Source: Candidatus Terraquivivens yellowstonensis | GTDB taxonomy: Archaea > Thermoproteota > Nitrososphaeria_A > Caldarchaeales > Wolframiiraptoraceae | Length of the DNA stretch: 64,000 nt | Direction of reading: 5' to 3' | Assembly: GCA_023539445.1 (NCBI GenBank) | Contig: JAKCEW010000001.1 | Coordinates: 75,484 to 139,483, forward strand | Shown here: positions 4,634-63,744 of the stretch, in pieces | How the letters are laid out: every line of letters starts with the position of its first letter | How positions within the stretch are numbered: the stretch's first letter is position 1 | The notes under the pieces: generated by a model | The model's database searches: none | Seen by the model: only the letters and a program-made list of their open reading frames with translations | Told to the model about the DNA's origin: nothing | Made by a program: the position numbers and the translations under genes

Positions 4634-5116
4634 TTGTTGAAATTTAAAGTTACTCCAGGATTGTATAGTCCTGAAAAGGTCAAGAAGATTTCAAGAGATT
4701 TTTCTGGCGGCTACTTGCTGTTGATTGGGCTATCCAAGGCAGTCAGGGTAGTGTTCGGCTCTGTGGGTGCAAGACTCTTGGAGCCAGGCTACTATGTTTA
4801 CGCCGGCTCGGCCATAGGAAAAACTGGATGGAGACTCCTTCGGCACATAGGCCCTTTCAGAAGAAGACCTCATTGGCACATAGACAGGCTTTTGAACAAA
4901 CAGGCTGCAAAAGTCGTAGTTATAGGTATTCTACCGTCCAATAGGAGGATAGAGTGTTCCCTTTCACATATAGTATCCTCGATGGCAACCTATAGCTTGG
5001 CTGGCATAGGTTCGACCGACTGCAACTGCCCATCTCATCTACACTACTTCAAAAAGAGGTCAGACGCCGTGAAAGCCATCAAAAAAGCAATTGAGAGAGT
5101 AGGGAGAGACCATTAA
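4634..5116 (+). CDS. DUF123 / GIY-YIG-like putative endonuclease (true start probably downstream of the TTG at 4634)
   Basis: GYYVYAGSA...HWHIDRL signature of the DUF123 family. Confidence 0.5.
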   Translation: MLKFKVTPGLYSPEKVKKISRDFSGGYLLLIGLSKAVRVVFGSVGARLLEPGYYVYAGSAIGKTGWRLLRHIGPFRRRPHWHIDRLLNKQAAKVVVIGILPSNRRIECSLSHIVSSMATYSLAGIGSTDCNCPSHLHYFKKRSDAVKAIKKAIERVGRDH

Positions 5117-21758: not shown

Positions 21759-23979
21759 ATGCCCAGAGTGAAGAAGATCAGTGAAGTCGTTGACATTCTG
21801 AAAAATAAAGATAGTATAAGGAACGTCGGCATCATAGCCCATACCTAAGGATGCTTTAATCCTTAGGGGGTAAGTAGATCACGGAAAGACAACCACGACG
21901 GATAGCCTTCTAGCGGCAGCGGGATTGCTTTCGCCATCTTTGGCCGGAAAAGCGTTAGCTCTGGATTATCTCGAAGAAGAACAGCAGCGCCAGATGACGA
22001 TCAAGGCAGCTAACATTAGCCTCTACTACGAAATGGACTCGAAACCTTACATAATAAACCTCATAGACACTCCTGGACACGTCGACTTTTCTGGAAGGGT
22101 CACGAGGGCTTTAAGAGCAATAGACGGCGCAGTCGTTGTGGTGGACGCAGTCGAAGGTGTCATGACTCAGACTGAGACGGTGATAAGGCAGGCGGTGCAA
22201 GAAAGGGTCAAGCCGGTCCTATACATAAACAAAATCGATAGGCTGGTTAAGGAACTGAAGCTGACCCCTGAGAGGATTCAAGAGACGTTGGGTAGGATAA
22301 TCATGGACGTCAACAGACTGATAGAGATGTACGCTGAACCAGAGTTTAGGGATAAGTGGAAGGTTAGTATGGCCGCCGGCAGCGTGGCGATAGGTAGTGC
22401 AAAAGACAGGTGGGGATTCACTTTACAACAAGCCCAGAAGAAGGGCATAAAGTTCAGCGATGTTATCAACGCGTTTGCGAAAGGCGATATAGATTGGCTC
22501 AGGGAAAACGCGCCGTTACATGAAGCGATTCTCGAGATGGTAATAAACCACCATCCGCCTCCGCACGTAGCTCAAAAGTACAGAATACCGAAAATATGGA
22601 AGGGCCCGCTAGATAGCGATGTTGGTAAGGCCATGATGGAATGCGATGAAAACGGTCCTACGGTGATGGCCGTAACGGATGTAAAGGTTGACCCGCAAGC
22701 TGGTGTAGTGGTGACGGGTAGGTTATTCAGCGGTACCGTAAGCGATGGTAATGTATTGTTGCTGGTCGGAAGGAACATCACAGAAAGGGTCCAACAAGTT
22801 GCGGTATACATGGGCCCCTCGAGGGAAATAGTCGGTAGCCTGCCAGCCGGCAACATACCTGCGCTTTTAGGTATAGAAAATGCAAGGGCAGGTGACACAC
22901 TCGCAACCGTAGATATGGTTCCATTCGAAACGTTGAAGTATGTGTCAGAACCTGTGGTTACGATATCGATAGAGCCGAAACATAGCAAGGATTTGCCGAA
23001 GCTTGTCGATTTCTTAAACAAGTTGAGCATAGAAGACCCAACACTGGTCACAACAGTAAGACCTGAGACCGGCGAGTATCTGATAAGCGGTATGGGTACT
23101 TTACATCTAGAGATAGCTTTAACATGGATAGCTAAGGCGGGTCTGGAAGTAGTTCCGAGCAAACCGATAATACTATACAGAGAATCTGTCCAGAAAGTAG
23201 GGAAGGTCTTTGAAGGCAAATCGCCGAACAAACACAACAGGATATACATTAGGGCAGAACCGCTGGAACCTGAAGTGATCGAGTTGATAAGATCGGGTGA
23301 ACTCTATGACGAAATGGATAGGAAGCAGGTGGCGAAGATATTGCGAGACCATGGATGGGATGCTGAAGAAGCTAGGAACGTTTGGTGTATCGACCCTAGG
23401 GGCAACATACTCGTTGACATGACGAAGGGAGCCCAGTATCTTCACGAATCTAAGATGATGATAATAGGCGGCTTCCAAAGGGTAGTCTCAGAAGGACCGC
23501 TTGCCGGAGAAGCCATGAGGGGGGTAAAGGCGGTTCTGGTTAACGTAGAACTACATGAAGACCCTGTACACAGAGGTTATGCCCAAATAGCGCCGGCGAC
23601 GTGGAGGAGCCTCTATGCCAGCATACTGAGCGCAGACCCTGTGTTGTTAGAACCCATACTAAAGTTGGAGGCAAAGGTATCGCCTGAATTCATGGGCGCT
23701 GTGACTAGTGTCATAAGCTCGAAAAGGGGAAAGGTTCTAGATATAAGACAAGCTGAGTACATAACGATAATACAGGGTGAAATTCCGGCCGCTGAGACCT
23801 TTGACCTGAGCGAGGTCATGAGGAGCGTTACGATGGGCAAGGCTTTCTGGGCGACCGAATTCTCTTCTTGGAAACCCGTTCCAGCGTCGATAAGGGATAA
23901 GGTCATAGCGGAGATAAGAAAGAGAAAGGGACTTCCGCCAGAAATACCGAAGATATCCGACTTTGTGGAAGAGGAATAG
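21759..23979 (+). CDS. fusA: Translation elongation factor 2 (aEF-2), interrupted by a 31-nt BHB-type intron. The mature CDS is join(21759..21842, 21874..23979).
   Basis: Exon 1 encodes MPRVKKISEVVDILKNKDSIRNVGIIAH, which matches the aEF-2 N-terminus, and then runs into a TAA. Exon 2 opens right after a TAA with VDHGKTTTTDSLLAAAG..., the remainder of the P-loop. The two pieces are in different frames, offset by 31 nt. Confidence 0.85.
21843..21873 (+). other. Putative BHB mRNA intron in the EF-2 gene (31 nt)
   Basis: Central 4-bp helix GCCC(21837-40)/GGGU(21868-71). The 3-nt bulges AUA (21841-43) and AAG (21872-74) lie on opposite strands. The inner 7-bp stem CCUAAGG/CCUUAGG closes a 10-nt loop. 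Cutting after the 2nd nt of each bulge joins CAU|GUA and gives AHVDHGKTT. Confidence 0.7.
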
Positions 23980-38155: not shown

Positions 38156-41100
38156 ATGTCCTACAGGGGTTCTGTGGCCGCTATAAAGTTTGGCATACTT
38201 TCGCCCGACCTCATCAGGAGAATGTCCGTAGCTGAAATACAAAACCCCGATACATACGGCGATGACGGTCTTCCGATACCCACGGGTGTAATGGATCCAA
38301 GGTTGGGGACCCTAGAGCCCGGCCAACGTTGTAAGACGTGCGGTAACACTTACCTTGGATGTCCAGGGCACTTCGGACACATAGAATTACCGGTTCCCGT
38401 TATACACGTTGGCTTTGTCAAAACTATACATACGCTCCTAAAAGCAACCTGCAGGTCATGTGGTAGGATACTTTTAAACGATGAAGAGATAAAGAGCTTT
38501 AAAGAAGAGTTAGAAAAGGAGAAACAGTCCGGGAGACCATACAGGCATATTTACTTCAAAGTAATACAGAAGGCCACATCGACACAGACTTGTCCGCACT
38601 GCGGCGAGAAGCAGCTAAAGATCGAATTGGAGAAGCCGACGACGTTTATAGAAGCGGCGGAGTCGGAGCTTGTAAGACTTCCAGCAAACGTTGTCAGAGC
38701 TAGGCTAGAGAGAATACCTGACGACGACCTAGTGTTGCTGGACATAGATCCTAAGAGCGCAAGACCAGAGTGGATGGTACTAACGGTCTTACCCGTACCG
38801 CCTGTTTATGTAAGGCCATCCATCACGCTTGAATCGGGTTTCAGGTCAGAAGATGACCTGACCCACAAGTTGGTAGACATACTCAGGGTTGCTCAAAGGC
38901 TTAGAGAAAACATAGCCGCCGGGTCTCCATCACCAGTCATAATGGAATTGTCAGACCTTCTCCAGTATCATGTAACAACTTACATTAATAATGAGGCGGT
39001 CGGAATATCGCCGTCTGTTCATAGGTCCGGCCGCGTACTAAAGACATTGGCGCAGAGATTGAAAGGCAAGGAAGGCAGGTTCAGGTTAAACCTTTCCGGC
39101 AAGAGGGTCGACTTCTCCGCCAGAACTGTCATATCCCCAGATCCCAACATTGGAATAAACGAGGTCGGAGTTCCCATAGAAATAGCGATGCAACTTACCG
39201 TACCAGAAAAAGTTACTGTATGGAACATTGAAAGATTAAGGGAATATGTAAGGAACGGTCCGGATAAGTATCCGGGCGCCAAGTACATAATCAGGCCGGA
39301 TGGTAAGACCATAAGGCTAAAACTTGCGCACGATTTAAACGAGCTGGCAAATGCTCTAGAGCCTGGCTACATAGTCGAGCGGCACCTCATCGACGGAGAT
39401 ATTGTGTTGTTCAACAGGCAGCCTTCGCTTCATAGAATGTCAATAATGGCCCATATAGTAAAGGTCCTTCCTTACAAGACATTCCGTCTCAATCTTGCGG
39501 TTTGCACACCATATAACGCGGACTTCGACGGTGACGAGATGAACCTACACGTTCCACAGAGCGAAGAAGCCCAAACCGAAGCTCGAATACTACTTTTAGT
39601 ACAGAATAATATAATATCTCCGCGCCACGGTACGCCCATAATCGGAGCCATTAGAGACTTCCTCACAGCTACCTACTTGTTGACAAAGGATGATACTTTG
39701 CTCAGCCTAAAAGAGCTGTCCTATTTGCTCTCAGCGATAGGGTATGACGGTGAGCTACCAGAGCCAGTGGTAACTACGCCGCAACCGTTATGGAGTGGCA
39801 AGCAGGTATTCAGCCTATTACTTCCAAAGGACTTTAGTCACAAATTCAGATCTACCTTTATGCCCGAGGAACCAGTCATAATACAGGATGGTAAGCTCAT
39901 AAAAGGTGTGATAGATAAAGGTGGCATAGGCGTAGAGAAAGCAAACAACATAATACATAGGTTAGTAAGAGACTACGGGCCTGATGTAGCTAGGGAATTC
40001 TTAGACAGAGTAGTGAGGCTTGCTAACACCTATCTGCGTATAAGGGGCTTCACTTTCACCATAGATGACCTAACGGTGCCAGCTGAAATTTACCGAGAAA
40101 TATCCAAACTTTTTGTAAAGATGGATGAAGAATTCAATAAACTTAAAGCGGACTATGAAAAGGGTAAAGCTCCTGTTTATCCAGGCGAGACGCCTGAACA
40201 ATCATTCGAATCTGTAATCTTATCGTTACTTTCAAAGACTAGGGATACTGCAGGCAAGATTGTGAGGCAAAGCATACCTCCATCGAATAATGCTCTGATA
40301 ATGATAAAGACTGGAGCGAGGGGCACATCACTTAACATCGACCAAATGATAGCTGTCGTCGGTCAACAGGCGGTTAGGAGGGAAAGGATCAAGAGAGGAT
40401 ACATGGACAGGGTTCTAACATTCTTTAAGCCAAAAGATCTGTCACCTAGGGCTAGAGGCTTTGTTTATAACTCGTTCATGAACGGCTTAGACCCGCTAGA
40501 ATTCTTCTTCCATATGGTGGGTGGAAGGGACGGTCTTGTTGACACGGCGGTGAGAACCCAGCAAAGCGGTTACATGCAGCGTAGATTGATAAACGCTCTA
40601 GAATCGCTGTACGTTGAGTACGACGGCACGGTAAGGACAACGGACGAAAAGAGAATAATACAATTCCAGTACGGTGAGGACGGTGTTGACCCTGCTAAGA
40701 GTGAACATGGACAGCCAGTTAACCCGACTCTGATCATAGAAAAGTTCATGAAGAGCTTGCCAGCAGACAAGCCCGCCTCCAACGAGTATATAATGTCAAA
40801 GTCTGAATGGTACAAGAAACTCATGCCTGAAAAGATTGTTGAAGAGTTGGCGAACGAACTCATAAAAGCGAAAGCTTCAGAACGTGTAGTTGATAACTCC
40901 TTTGAAGAAGCATATAGGGTTTATTTGAATTCTAGAGTAGAACCCGGTGATGCCGTAGGGGTCGTGACAGCTCAGTCAATAGGTGAACCGGGAACCCAGC
41001 TTACACTTAGGACGTTCCACTTTGCGGGTGTTAGGGAACAAAGCATACTGCTTGGTTTGCCAAGGTTAATTGAGATAGTCGACGCCCGTAAGGTCCCCTC

Positions 41101-41974
41101 CACACCTATAATGAGAATATATCTCCAGAAGGAATTCGCAAAAGATAAGGCCAAAGCGCAAAAAATCGCAAACCAAATACAACACACGGCTCTCAAAGAA
41201 ATAGTTTCCGAAGTGGTTATAAACTATAAGCGCGGTATTCTAACCGTTACGTTAGACACGGATGCGATGCATGAAAGGGGTGTCACTCTAAGTGACGTGA
41301 AAAATGCCCTGAAAGCTTACAAGCCAGAAGTGAAGGACACGAATATCGTCATCTTAAAGCCATCCGAGGACAGCGTACAAGCGCTCGAGAAGATTAGAGA
41401 CAAAATACTGATGGACGACAAAATGACGGTCAAGGGAATTAAGAAAATAACGAAAGCTCTGGTTGTACAGGAAAATGATGAGTACGTAATACTAACGGAG
41501 GGCTCAAACCTAAGAGAGGTTGTAAAGGTGCCTGGTGTTGATGCCACTAGGGTTATTACGAACGACATACATGAGATTGCAGAAGTCTTAGGAATAGAGG
41601 CTGCAAGGAACGCGATAATAAACGAGGCGAAGAACGTGCTACGCGAGCAAGGATTAGACGTCGACATTAGGCATCTTATACTCTTGGCAGATATGATGAC
41701 AGTCAGTGGTAGCGTAAGGCAGGTAGGTAGGCATGGTGTGATTAAGCTAAAAGAGAGCGTACTTGCTAGGGCGGCCTTTGAAATAAGCGTTCAAGTACTG
41801 CTTGATGCAGCGACCAGAGGTGAGGTGGATTACTTGAAAGGTAACGTTGAAAGGATACTTATGGGAAAGGAGATACCGGTGGGTACGGGCATGGTATCGT
41901 TGCTGATGGTGCATCAAGCTAACCAGTCGAATAACGAGGTCGGTGATAAGAATGAACATAAGGAAAGAACTTGA
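38156..41974 (+). CDS. rpoA: DNA-directed RNA polymerase subunit A: A' and A'' in one continuous 1272-aa frame
   Basis: N-terminal Zn motifs CKTCG/CPGHFGH, NADFDGDEMN at the catalytic centre, and the A''-type block GEPGTQLTLRTFHFAGV downstream. There is no stop codon at the position where most archaea split A'/A'' (around ...GEDGVDPAKSEHGQ / ...MPEKIVEEL). Confidence 0.9.
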   Translation: MSYRGSVAAIKFGILSPDLIRRMSVAEIQNPDTYGDDGLPIPTGVMDPRLGTLEPGQRCKTCGNTYLGCPGHFGHIELPVPVIHVGFVKTIHTLLKATCRSCGRILLNDEEIKSFKEELEKEKQSGRPYRHIYFKVIQKATSTQTCPHCGEKQLKIELEKPTTFIEAAESELVRLPANVVRARLERIPDDDLVLLDIDPKSARPEWMVLTVLPVPPVYVRPSITLESGFRSEDDLTHKLVDILRVAQRLRENIAAGSPSPVIMELSDLLQYHVTTYINNEAVGISPSVHRSGRVLKTLAQRLKGKEGRFRLNLSGKRVDFSARTVISPDPNIGINEVGVPIEIAMQLTVPEKVTVWNIERLREYVRNGPDKYPGAKYIIRPDGKTIRLKLAHDLNELANALEPGYIVERHLIDGDIVLFNRQPSLHRMSIMAHIVKVLPYKTFRLNLAVCTPYNADFDGDEMNLHVPQSEEAQTEARILLLVQNNIISPRHGTPIIGAIRDFLTATYLLTKDDTLLSLKELSYLLSAIGYDGELPEPVVTTPQPLWSGKQVFSLLLPKDFSHKFRSTFMPEEPVIIQDGKLIKGVIDKGGIGVEKANNIIHRLVRDYGPDVAREFLDRVVRLANTYLRIRGFTFTIDDLTVPAEIYREISKLFVKMDEEFNKLKADYEKGKAPVYPGETPEQSFESVILSLLSKTRDTAGKIVRQSIPPSNNALIMIKTGARGTSLNIDQMIAVVGQQAVRRERIKRGYMDRVLTFFKPKDLSPRARGFVYNSFMNGLDPLEFFFHMVGGRDGLVDTAVRTQQSGYMQRRLINALESLYVEYDGTVRTTDEKRIIQFQYGEDGVDPAKSEHGQPVNPTLIIEKFMKSLPADKPASNEYIMSKSEWYKKLMPEKIVEELANELIKAKASERVVDNSFEEAYRVYLNSRVEPGDAVGVVTAQSIGEPGTQLTLRTFHFAGVREQSILLGLPRLIEIVDARKVPSTPIMRIYLQKEFAKDKAKAQKIANQIQHTALKEIVSEVVINYKRGILTVTLDTDAMHERGVTLSDVKNALKAYKPEVKDTNIVILKPSEDSVQALEKIRDKILMDDKMTVKGIKKITKALVVQENDEYVILTEGSNLREVVKVPGVDATRVITNDIHEIAEVLGIEAARNAIINEAKNVLREQGLDVDIRHLILLADMMTVSGSVRQVGRHGVIKLKESVLARAAFEISVQVLLDAATRGEVDYLKGNVERILMGKEIPVGTGMVSLLMVHQANQSNNEVGDKNEHKERT

Positions 41975-47276: not shown

Positions 47277-48569
47277 TTGAGAATATATGCTGATTTACAC
47301 ATTCACAGCTATTATTCTGGTGCAACCTCAAGGAACATGAATCTGGAAGAGATTGCCCGATATGCCATAATAAAGGGTCTAGGGTTGCTGGGAACAGGCG
47401 ATGCTCTTCATCCGGGATGGTTTAAGGAATTGAGCGAACGCTTAGAGGAGATTGACAACACCGGAATCTATAGATTGAGGTTCTCCGAAAGCCCTGTACA
47501 CTTCATATTCCAAACTGAGGTTGCTACTGTGCACCAATATAAAGAAAAGGCAAGAAGAATTCATCACGTCATCTTAATACCATCGAAGGATGTGTCCATG
47601 CAGCTTGCAGATAGGCTCTCAACATATGGTGACTTGGCATCTGACGGTAGGCCGGTCCTTACGATGGCGCCCGCCGAGCTTGTTGATGTAGTCTTGGAAA
47701 CTGAAAAGAGATGCCTGATATTCCCAGCGCATGCTTGGACACCATGGTGGTCGGTATTCGGGAGCTTCAGCGGTGTTGATTCTTTAGAGGAAGCCTATGA
47801 AGACCGGGCTAAAGATATTTGCGCTTTAGAAACTGGACTTAGCAGCGACCCTCCCATGAACTGGAGGGTCAGCAGCTTGGACAGGCTCACATTAGTAAGT
47901 GCTAGTGATGCGCATAGTCCTTATCCATTCAGGCTTGGAAGGGAAGCTGTCGTGTTTGAATTGGACAAGCTCACTTACGATGAGGTTACCGATGCCATTA
48001 GAAAGAAGGACAGAAAGAGGATAGTTATGACGGTAGAGGTTCCGCCAGCATACGGCAAATATCACTGGTCAGGGCACAGAAACTGTAACGTCGGCCCTCT
48101 ATCACCAGAGGATGCTAAGAATGTGGGATACAAGTGTGTTGTTTGTGGCAAAAAATTGACAAAAGGTGTTGATGATAGGGTTAACGAGCTTGCGGACAGG
48201 CCTCCAGGCTACATACCGGAGGGCTCTATAGGCTTTAAATACGCTATACCCCTCCAAGAACTTATAGCAGTCTCAGAAGGCATAGACCTAGAATCCGAAC
48301 ACAGACTCACGTCTGGCAGGGTTTGGAAGGAGTACGCTAGGATAATATCCATCCTAGGTGACGAGTTTAGGGTAATGTTCGAAGCATCGGAAGAGGAGCT
48401 TAAAAGTGTGATGGAGCCTCAGCTAGTAAATCTCATAATGGCCGTGAGGCAGAACAGAATCAGGATAATTCCAGGGTTTGATGGGGTATATGGTCGAATA
48501 ATATTCGGCGCAGAAGAAAAGGTAGAAGAGCGAAAACACGTCAGTAAAAGGTTAGAAGATTTTTTCTGA
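47277..48569 (+). CDS. PHP-domain nuclease, endonuclease Q (EndoQ)-like
   Basis: DLHIHSYYS...GTGDALHP...FPAHAWTPW...SASDAHSP PHP motifs, plus a CxxC...CVVCGKK Zn finger. The overall length and block order match EndoQ as recalled from Pyrococcus furiosus. Confidence 0.65.
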   Translation: MRIYADLHIHSYYSGATSRNMNLEEIARYAIIKGLGLLGTGDALHPGWFKELSERLEEIDNTGIYRLRFSESPVHFIFQTEVATVHQYKEKARRIHHVILIPSKDVSMQLADRLSTYGDLASDGRPVLTMAPAELVDVVLETEKRCLIFPAHAWTPWWSVFGSFSGVDSLEEAYEDRAKDICALETGLSSDPPMNWRVSSLDRLTLVSASDAHSPYPFRLGREAVVFELDKLTYDEVTDAIRKKDRKRIVMTVEVPPAYGKYHWSGHRNCNVGPLSPEDAKNVGYKCVVCGKKLTKGVDDRVNELADRPPGYIPEGSIGFKYAIPLQELIAVSEGIDLESEHRLTSGRVWKEYARIISILGDEFRVMFEASEEELKSVMEPQLVNLIMAVRQNRIRIIPGFDGVYGRIIFGAEEKVEERKHVSKRLEDFF

Positions 48570-59095: not shown

Positions 59096-59205
59096 TGGCG
59101 GGCCCGGTGGGATTCGAACCCACGACCTATGGGTTACTCCGTTTAAACAAACCTAAGAGCCCACCGCTTTAGGCGGAACCCCCTACCTGGCTGAGCTACG
59201 GGCCC
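59096..59205 (-). tRNA. tRNA-Lys (anticodon CTT) with two introns, CCA encoded
   Basis: The 110-nt pre-tRNA has acceptor GGGCCCG/CGGGCCC and T-arm GTGGG-TTCGAAT-CCCAC. A canonical 19-nt intron follows position 37 (fwd 59135-59153) in a perfect BHB. A second 14-nt intron sits in the D-arm at 22/23 (fwd 59169-59182); removing it gives the canonical D-arm GCTC-AGCCAGGTA-GAGC. Confidence 0.8.
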
Positions 59206-63437: not shown

Positions 63438-63485
63438 AAAAACGTTTATAAACATCAAAACTGAAAAATTATACCGTGAGTAAAT

Positions 63486-63744
63486 ATGCCAAAAGCATTT
63501 GTCTTGGTGAACACTGAGATACCCCGATAAAATAAGGGGCTCAAAAGGTTCTGAGGAAGAAGTGGTTAACGAGTTAAGAAAGATCGACGCGGTTAAGGAG
63601 GCATTTATTGTCTATGGTGTTTATGACGTGATAGTAAAGGTTGAAGCAGATAGCATGGACAAGCTTAAGGAAATAGTTTCATGGAAGATAAGAAGATTGG
63701 ATAAGGTCAGGAGTACACTCACGATGCTTGTGATCAGCGAGTGA
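63486..63744 (+). CDS. Stand-alone RAM (Lrp/AsnC C-terminal) domain protein, interrupted by a 25-nt BHB-type intron. The mature CDS is join(63486..63520, 63546..63744).
   Basis: Exon 1 (MPKAFVLVNTEI) runs into a TAA. Exon 2, in the +1 frame, encodes GSEEEVVNELRKIDAVKEAFIVYGVYDVIVKVEADSMDKLKEIV..., which matches stand-alone RAM-domain proteins (MxKAFVLIKTEPGKEEEV...). Confidence 0.65.
63521..63545 (+). other. Putative BHB mRNA intron in the RAM-domain gene (25 nt)
   Basis: Central 4-bp helix UGAG(63515-18)/CUCA(63540-43) with perfect Watson-Crick pairs. The 3-nt bulges are AUA (63519-21) and AAA (63544-46). The inner stem CCCC/GGGG closes a 10-nt loop. Cutting after the 2nd bulge nucleotide joins AU|A GGU and gives ...TEIGSEEE... 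Confidence 0.65.

Follow-up and report, generated by a model that had tools for sequence, protein, structure and literature searches.

We analysed a window of 64,000 nucleotides (nt) of DNA from Candidatus Terraquivivens yellowstonensis (contig JAKCEW010000001.1, positions 75,484 to 139,483; coordinates below are positions within this window) and find that a small gene at 63486-63744 is interrupted by a 25-nt element, 63521-63545, which is very probably a spliced bulge–helix–bulge (BHB) intron. The gene is predicted to encode a stand-alone RAM-domain protein (Lrp/AsnC ligand-binding domain) of 77 amino acids (aa), interrupted after the second base of codon 12. The ATG at 63486-63488 opens a frame-0 reading, MPKAFVLVNTEI-PR, that ends at a TAA at 63528-63530, and the only open reading frame (ORF) that a gene caller can report is one of 60 aa, which runs from a GTG at 63562 to 63744 in the +1 frame relative to that ATG. 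This is the layout described in the initial annotation of the stretch, which had a frame-0 ORF running into a stop with the rest of a RAM protein following in the +1 frame. Excision of 63521-63545 yields the 77-aa RAM-domain protein with the junction ...VNTEIGSEEEVVNEL... (...NTE-I-GSEEEVVNEL...); since A stands at both ends, excising 63522-63546 instead gives the same product.

All parts of the interrupted gene lie on the forward (+) strand. Exon 1 (63486-63520) would contain the start codon, codons 1-11 and bases 1-2 of codon 12 (MPKAFVLVNTE + AU). The putative intron (63521-63545) reads A CCCC GAUAAAAUAA GGGG CUCA AA and includes the frame-0 stop at 63528-30, and exon 2 (63546-63744) would supply base 3 of codon 12, codons 13-77 and the TGA stop at 63742-44. 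A TATA-like box, TTTATAAA (63445-63452), lies about 34-41 nt 5′ of the exon-1 ATG and is the probable promoter of the interrupted gene. The block TTTATAAACATCAAAACTGAAAAAT 5′ of the ATG is also found in related loci, with a few base changes.

Canonical BHB cleavage, as the initial annotation had proposed, restores the family sequence at the junction (E-I-G) and gives a product that is full length against both homologs and solved structures. The spliced product matches the Pfam family PF01037 (AsnC_trans_reg) with E = 1.1e-15 over profile positions 1-73 of 73, and the 60-aa ORF matches it at positions 16-73 only. An alignment of the spliced product with 21 uninterrupted homologs (77-81 aa, 74-81% identity), drawn from Caldarchaeales/Aigarchaeota, Nitrososphaerota and Bathyarchaeota, needs no gaps, and E11, I12 and G13 are invariant in it. 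Residues 1-75 of PDB entry 2zbc align to residues 1-75 of the spliced product (E = 9e-24), and the stand-alone RAM proteins 2cvi and 2e1a align with it from residue 2. An AlphaFold2 model of the spliced product (predicted local distance difference test score 95) adopts a beta-alpha-beta-beta-alpha-beta fold, with strands at residues 3-10, 28-33, 39-45 and 66-75 and helices at residues 15-22 and 49-60. Strand beta-1 (residues 3-10) is, in this model, encoded wholly by exon 1.

These comparisons bear on an alternative in which nothing is joined and two products are made, exon 1 acting as a leader peptide, MPKAFVLVNTEIPR, and the real protein being the 60-aa ORF from GTG 63562 (MVNELRK). All public annotations give the 60-aa ORF, which still matches PF01037. 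The 60-aa form, however, would be left without strand beta-1 of the beta-alpha-beta-beta-alpha-beta fold, exon 1 is recognisable as the N terminus of the family, and codons 13-17 (63547-63561) vary in a coding fashion, including a serine or alanine as in the homologs. We consider two separate products very improbable.

The archaeal splicing endonuclease cuts each strand after the second of three unpaired bases that follow a central helix. In the RAM gene, the predicted central helix pairs UGAG in exon 1 (63515-63518) with CUCA in the intron (63540-63543); its four Watson–Crick pairs occur in both the minimum-free-energy and the consensus structure and show no variation in seven distinct sequences. 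The 3-nt 5′ bulge, AUA (63519-63521), is present in the minimum-free-energy structure between UGAG and CCCC/GGGG, and would place the first cut at 63520/63521. The inner hairpin (63522-63539) joins CCCC (63522-25) to GGGG (63536-39) by four G-C pairs around a 10-nt loop (63526-35), both in the minimum-free-energy structure and by RNAalifold. On the 3′ side, the bases AAA (63544-63546; AGA in relatives) form a bulge or loop with the second predicted cut at 63545/63546, followed by an irregular outer helix whose 5′ strand, GAAC + A + C (63509-63514), is partnered by G63547 and GUUC (63548-51). Folding of 63505-63556 gives this BHB-like structure as the minimum-free-energy solution at 37 °C and still gives its core at 75 °C, and the same fold is the RNAalifold consensus of seven variants. 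The BHB anatomy given in the initial annotation holds for UGAG/CUCA, AUA, CCCC/GGGG and the 10-nt loop; the 3′ AAA bulge is not cleanly closed. The predicted motif fits the relaxed type (HBh′-like, HBh′/BHL class) rather than strict hBHBh′.

We compared the motif with its chance expectation. A loose BHB pattern has ~2,600 matches per strand in the 64-kb window, and in a scan of the window, moving the cut away from its canonical place does not make frame-restoring BHB matches any less frequent. The BHB motif by itself does not exceed chance; what is informative is that the cuts set by the rule coincide with the excision required by homology. At one prescribed position pair, the chance of finding the motif, defined as a central helix of 4 base pairs (bp), a 3-nt bulge and an inner helix of at least 4 bp, is 3.9e-4 when G-U pairs are admitted and 1.7e-5 for Watson–Crick pairs only, as in the RAM intron. 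Stricter scans that combine the BHB with an ORF left 83 candidates in the window, and hundreds when all loci were included, of which the convincing ones are those in the RAM gene and in the gene for EF-2, described below. A motif derived from these two introns, [H]ATACC...GG[H']ARR, matches just the two in 128 kb and, given its derivation, is not independent of them. The suggestion in the initial annotation that such introns are widespread in this genome is not borne out by the window scans, which show two convincing cases in 64 kb and none further.

The insert is shared by close relatives. The same DNA, insert included, is present in an independent Logan assembly. In a GTDB scan, one of 80 loci (L015) is an interrupted ortholog, and the rest match from the first few residues and are uninterrupted. 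Searching with the 60-aa ORF returned seven 60-aa variants at 97-100% identity, after which identity drops to ~81% and nearly all matches are near full length. From JGI, ENA, NCBI and Logan we collected ~35 Caldarchaeales (Aigarchaeota) loci, drawn from hot-spring metagenomes including Great Boiling Spring, from NCBI metagenome-assembled genomes and from a metagenome pattern scan. They reduce to 10 distinct gene sequences that are 89-99.6% identical and fall into at least five species-level groups, and the 25-nt insert is in the same place in all 10 DNA variants. An intron-less allele was sought among close relatives by metagenome scan; four loci were found, and all four carry the insert.

An assembly or sequencing artefact is excluded by the occurrence of the same insert in ~35 assemblies from different samples and pipelines. 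Translational bypassing, in which ribosomes would hop over the insert, draws some support from a hairpin and a stop placed beyond the take-off point, an arrangement known from T4 gene 60, and from a CUGAG repeat at 63514-18 and 63551-55. A hop from GAG to GAG would nevertheless lose the invariant I12-G13-S14, and no match of take-off and landing codons yields EIG. We assign bypassing or artefact a next to negligible probability. A 63-aa RAM homolog on a 402-kb contig (P0133, locus L098) was considered as a further intron case and rejected; it carries one extra base instead, ATGCCAAGT-C-GCCTTC (~940-1010 of L098), which is probably either an error of assembly or a genuine frameshift.

Both exons vary in the manner of coding sequence. 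At codon positions 1, 2 and 3, variable sites number 2/12, 0/12 and 4/11 in exon 1 and 3/66, 2/66 and 32/67 in exon 2, and the two exons have ratios of non-synonymous to synonymous polymorphism (pN/pS) of 0.047 and 0.028, respectively. As judged from these values, both exons are under purifying selection. The ratios and the pattern of sites indicate that both exons are translated in the frames joined by splicing and that the gene is not a pseudogene. The earlier view that the upstream 12 codons are part of the protein is upheld by the alignment from residue 1, by the pN/pS of exon 1 and by the position of beta-1 in that exon. A decaying pseudogene with a random 25-nt insertion might have been suspected from the broken reading frame, and the truncated homolog L098 is indeed a simple 1-nt frameshift. 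Decay is extremely improbable: over at least five species-level lineages pN/pS stays at 0.03-0.05 for each exon, there are no other indels, the stems of the insert are invariant and the promoter block is largely conserved.

The insert itself varies differently from the exons that flank it. The comparison of orthologs that the initial annotation had named as a check was run here and supports it: at least five species-level lineages retain the insert, with invariant stems and a variable loop. Variable sites make up 0/12 of the stem positions and 5/10 of the loop positions (63530-34 only), and the second base of the 3′ bulge is A or G. Pairs of sequences differ on average by 0.16 in the loop and by 0.20 at the bulge bases, but by 0.00 in the stems, compared with a pS of 0.31-0.37. 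On this pattern, the constraint on the insert is that of RNA helices and not of codons. The frame-0 stop in the intron loop (63528-63530) is kept in all variants, as UAA or, when 63530 is G, as UAG, within a loop whose other variation is free; this possibly reflects selection for quick termination on unspliced mRNA.

The main rival to splicing is a programmed +1 ribosomal frameshift at CCC-C (63522-25), with the rare codon CGA standing before UAA, that would give a product of 85 aa in which PDKIRGSK is inserted between I12 and G13. The features of such a site are present. As at the known +1 sites of prfB, Ty1 and antizyme, a slippery codon is followed by a rare or slow codon and a stop (CCC-CGA-UAA) with an open frame downstream; from position 63511 the frame of exon 2 stays open, few codons are rarer than CGA (2.0 per 1000), and CCCCGA with a stop (UAA or UAG) is retained in all variants. 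The shifted product, in contrast, is not conserved at the protein level. Four of the six variable sites in the insert would be non-synonymous, whereas 36 of 43 variable sites in the exons are at third codon positions, and the 8-aa insertion is absent from every aligned homolog and every solved structure. Unlike at the known sites, the product would gain an insert unknown in its family, and conservation tracks the helices. Frameshifting also leaves unexplained why excision by the BHB rule is exactly the excision that restores the family sequence, and it does not suit the look-alike element in the EF-2 gene, which is closed in the exon-2 frame by a UAA at 21871-73. We regard a frameshift as improbable. 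The two products differ in their peptides: AFVLVNTEIGSEEEVVNELR is the tryptic junction peptide of the spliced product, and AFVLVNTEIPDK is a peptide of the +1 frameshift product.

In the splicing reading that we favour, a pre-mRNA would be transcribed from the promoter directly 5′ of ATG 63486. Exonic UGAG and intronic CUCA would form the 4-bp central helix, with the intronic CCCC/GGGG hairpin as the inner helix. The tRNA-splicing endonuclease (EndA), which in Aigarchaeota we take to be the broad-specificity heterotetrameric form, would then cut on both sides of the intron, at 63520/63521 and at 63545/63546, in each case two bases beyond the 3′ end of a central-helix strand, and an RtcB-type ligase would join the exons. 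The mature mRNA would be translated into ...NTE-I-GSEEEV..., and unspliced mRNA would give only a 14-aa peptide. From the observed anatomy of the insert, the match between cuts and homology, the signs of selection, and the introns of the same type in EF-2 and a tRNA-Lys nearby, we infer the splicing itself and the participation of EndA and the RtcB-type ligase.

Several observations weigh against this reading. The 3′ AAA is closed by the single pair C63514-G63547, followed by a 1-nt bulge and then GAAC/GUUC, and the minimum-free-energy structure shows the 3′ side as a 2×4 internal loop, not as a clean 3-nt bulge. One variant has a weakened outer helix, the pair A63510-U63550 becoming A-G. When a longer piece (63500-63565) is folded, other hairpins are lower in energy (z = -1.6). 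RNAalifold finds variation in 0 of the 12 helix pairs, so that the RAM intron displays conservation without covariation, because its stems never vary. To these are added the frame of exon 2, open through the insert, and the resemblance of CCC-CGA-UAA to a +1 frameshift site. Splicing is here read from DNA sequence. Neither the RAM nor the EF-2 protein occurs in its exact spliced form in a collection of ~15 billion proteins, which for the RAM gene of this clade holds 60-aa calls only, and Pfam scans of 10 window ORFs found neither EndA nor RtcB.

The companion intron proposed in the EF-2 gene (21759-23979, + strand) proves real and is closed in both frames. Its predicted 31-nt BHB intron, 21843-21873, interrupts the P-loop after GIIAH and reads, with its flanking helix and bulge, GCCC AUA CCUAAGGAU-GCUUUA-AUCCUUAGG GGGU AAG. 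Removal of 21843-21873 by the BHB rule joins GIIAH/VDHGKTT to give AHVDHGKTT, and the spliced product of 729 aa has the length of uninterrupted homologs. A UAA at 21846-48 closes frame 0 two codons into the insert, and the UAA at 21871-73 closes the frame of exon 2; with both frames closed, ribosomal frameshifting cannot rescue EF-2. In public annotation, the EF-2 of the window is ~679 aa long.

Many EF-2 homologs in databases are likewise short, at 684-695 aa compared with 728-729. We retrieved five of these shortened proteins (P0161, P0231, P0251, P0274 and P0236), and all five have BHB introns in their genes. EF-2 introns occur at two sites. The H/V site of the window is also occupied in L112, L116 and L118, and an R/N site, eight codons upstream, is occupied in L113-L115, in L117 (Bathyarchaeia) and in L118, which has both. 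Within these loci the introns lie at ~522-560 in L113-L115, ~514-550 in L116, ~520-560 in L117 and ~461-550 in L118, and these genes, from other uncultured lineages, are 64-73% identical. In the seven EF-2 instances checked, every intron restores both the frame and the G1 motif by the same cut rule. RNAalifold recovers the central helix, 3-nt bulge and inner helix at both EF-2 sites, with compensatory changes in 7/13 and 9/15 pairs.

A pattern of AUA-CC on the 5′ side and GG-NNNN-AAR on the 3′ side is common to the RAM intron (63519-63523 for the 5′ part) and to the EF-2 introns at the H/V site, both in the clade of the window (window, at 21841-21845, and L112) and in L116, and has no other match in the window. 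It could reflect either an endonuclease preference or a common origin, in a small sample. The initial case for a common origin, built on an AUA bulge and a 10-nt loop present in both introns, is weak; the inner helix of the EF-2 intron can be extended to 9 bp, leaving a 6-nt loop, so that the similarity of the loops is itself not solid.

The window also encodes a tRNA-Lys(CUU) with two predicted BHB introns (59096-59205, - strand), a 14-nt intron in the D stem, on its 3′ strand (59169-59182), and a 19-nt intron at position 37/38 (59135-59153). Applied twice, the cut rule produces a perfect 77-nt tRNA. The intron at 37/38 is a textbook BHB. The D-stem intron, like the RAM intron, has a 3′ AAA bulge and an outer helix of 1 bp; it is equally weak in its outer helix and yet must be spliced. 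As a predicted substrate, this tRNA is a sign of the splicing system acting in the same genome. It was detected by Rfam only and missed by ARAGORN at default settings; in intron mode, ARAGORN called a tRNA-Stop(tta), which we rejected, as the BHB rule applied by hand gives tRNA-Lys.

Three further features of the window were noted. A hairpin at 4636-4700 (+ strand), with a 9-bp stem and BHB-like flanks, overlaps the start of a 160-aa ORF (4634-5116); its excision yields no sensible protein, and it is probably not an intron. A single 1272-aa ORF (38156-41974, + strand) follows a 1118-aa ORF that is read as RpoB, both ORFs being identified by size and position only. The RNA polymerase A subunit appears to be unsplit at 38156-41974, which would fit the taxonomic placement; an unsplit A subunit is reported for Thaumarchaeota. 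A 430-aa ORF (47277-48569, + strand) has no Pfam match at E ≤ 1e-5.

The closest known counterpart is the cbf5 pre-mRNA intron of Crenarchaeota, reportedly described by Watanabe in 2002 and by Yoshinari in 2006, and treated by Yokobori in 2009 (PMC2738675). In the open literature that we searched, including reviews and a 2025 structural paper, cbf5 is the sole confirmed archaeal mRNA BHB intron since 2002. Archaeal mRNA introns other than cbf5 have been predicted only (PMC2738675, PMC12397907), and relaxed motifs are typical of the cbf5 mRNA intron (PMC2738675). In a relative of the Aigarchaeota, Caldiarchaeum subterraneum, tRNA introns are found in non-canonical places and the endonuclease is heterotetrameric (PMC3082918), a type of enzyme that fits processing of the relaxed RAM motif. 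In the open literature, closed-access papers being outside the scope of the search, there is no report of EF-2 or RAM introns.

The RAM and EF-2 introns resemble that of cbf5 in being short, frame-breaking, BHB-type introns in protein-coding genes, often with a relaxed motif, in a lineage whose endonuclease is hetero-oligomeric and of broad specificity, and in being present or absent by lineage. They differ in their hosts, a RAM protein and EF-2, and in their lineages, Caldarchaeales/Aigarchaeota and Bathyarchaeia as opposed to Crenarchaeota; and splicing was shown by experiment for cbf5, whereas for RAM and EF-2 it is deduced. With archaeal tRNA introns (hBHBh′ and relaxed HBh′) they share the 4-bp helix, the 3-nt bulges, the cut after the second bulge base, the pairing of exon with intron and a length of 14-34 nt, but the RAM substrate would be an mRNA without a tRNA body, in which the reading frame must survive. 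Splicing of HAC1/XBP1 in eukaryotes uses the endonuclease Ire1, with ligation by RtcB in metazoa and by the tRNA ligase Trl1 in yeast. It is similar in removing a short mRNA intron independently of the spliceosome, with stem-loops, a tRNA-splicing ligase and a change of frame; it differs in its endonuclease and recognition motif and in being a regulated stress switch.

Gene callers miss these introns, as the initial annotation had anticipated, reporting 60 aa in place of 77 for the RAM protein and 679-695 aa in place of 729 for EF-2. Truncated calls of this kind carry over into annotation, into phylogenies with EF-2 as a marker gene and into the number of pseudogenes counted in metagenome-assembled genomes. 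Beyond cbf5, the 64-kb window would add two further host genes, one of them the essential translation GTPase EF-2, and the archaeal splicing endonuclease would act on a wider range of substrates than has been known. A Caldarchaeales organism that is probably related is available in enrichment culture, which offers a testable system for asking how splicing competes with coupled transcription–translation and how mRNA introns originate.

In several uncultured lineages EF-2 carries introns at one or both of the same two sites, and these data suggest that mRNA BHB introns may be widespread across uncultured Thermoproteota. We hold evenly balanced the broader proposition that such introns are a regular and overlooked feature of these archaea, with several genes per genome and two conserved sites in the EF-2 G domain, in Caldarchaeales/Aigarchaeota, Bathyarchaeia and their relatives, both sites being combined in one gene in L118. 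If true, the introns would be either ancient or spread in a site-specific manner, and core genes would need the tRNA-splicing machinery for their expression, in an archaeal counterpart to splicing of the HAC1/XBP1 type.

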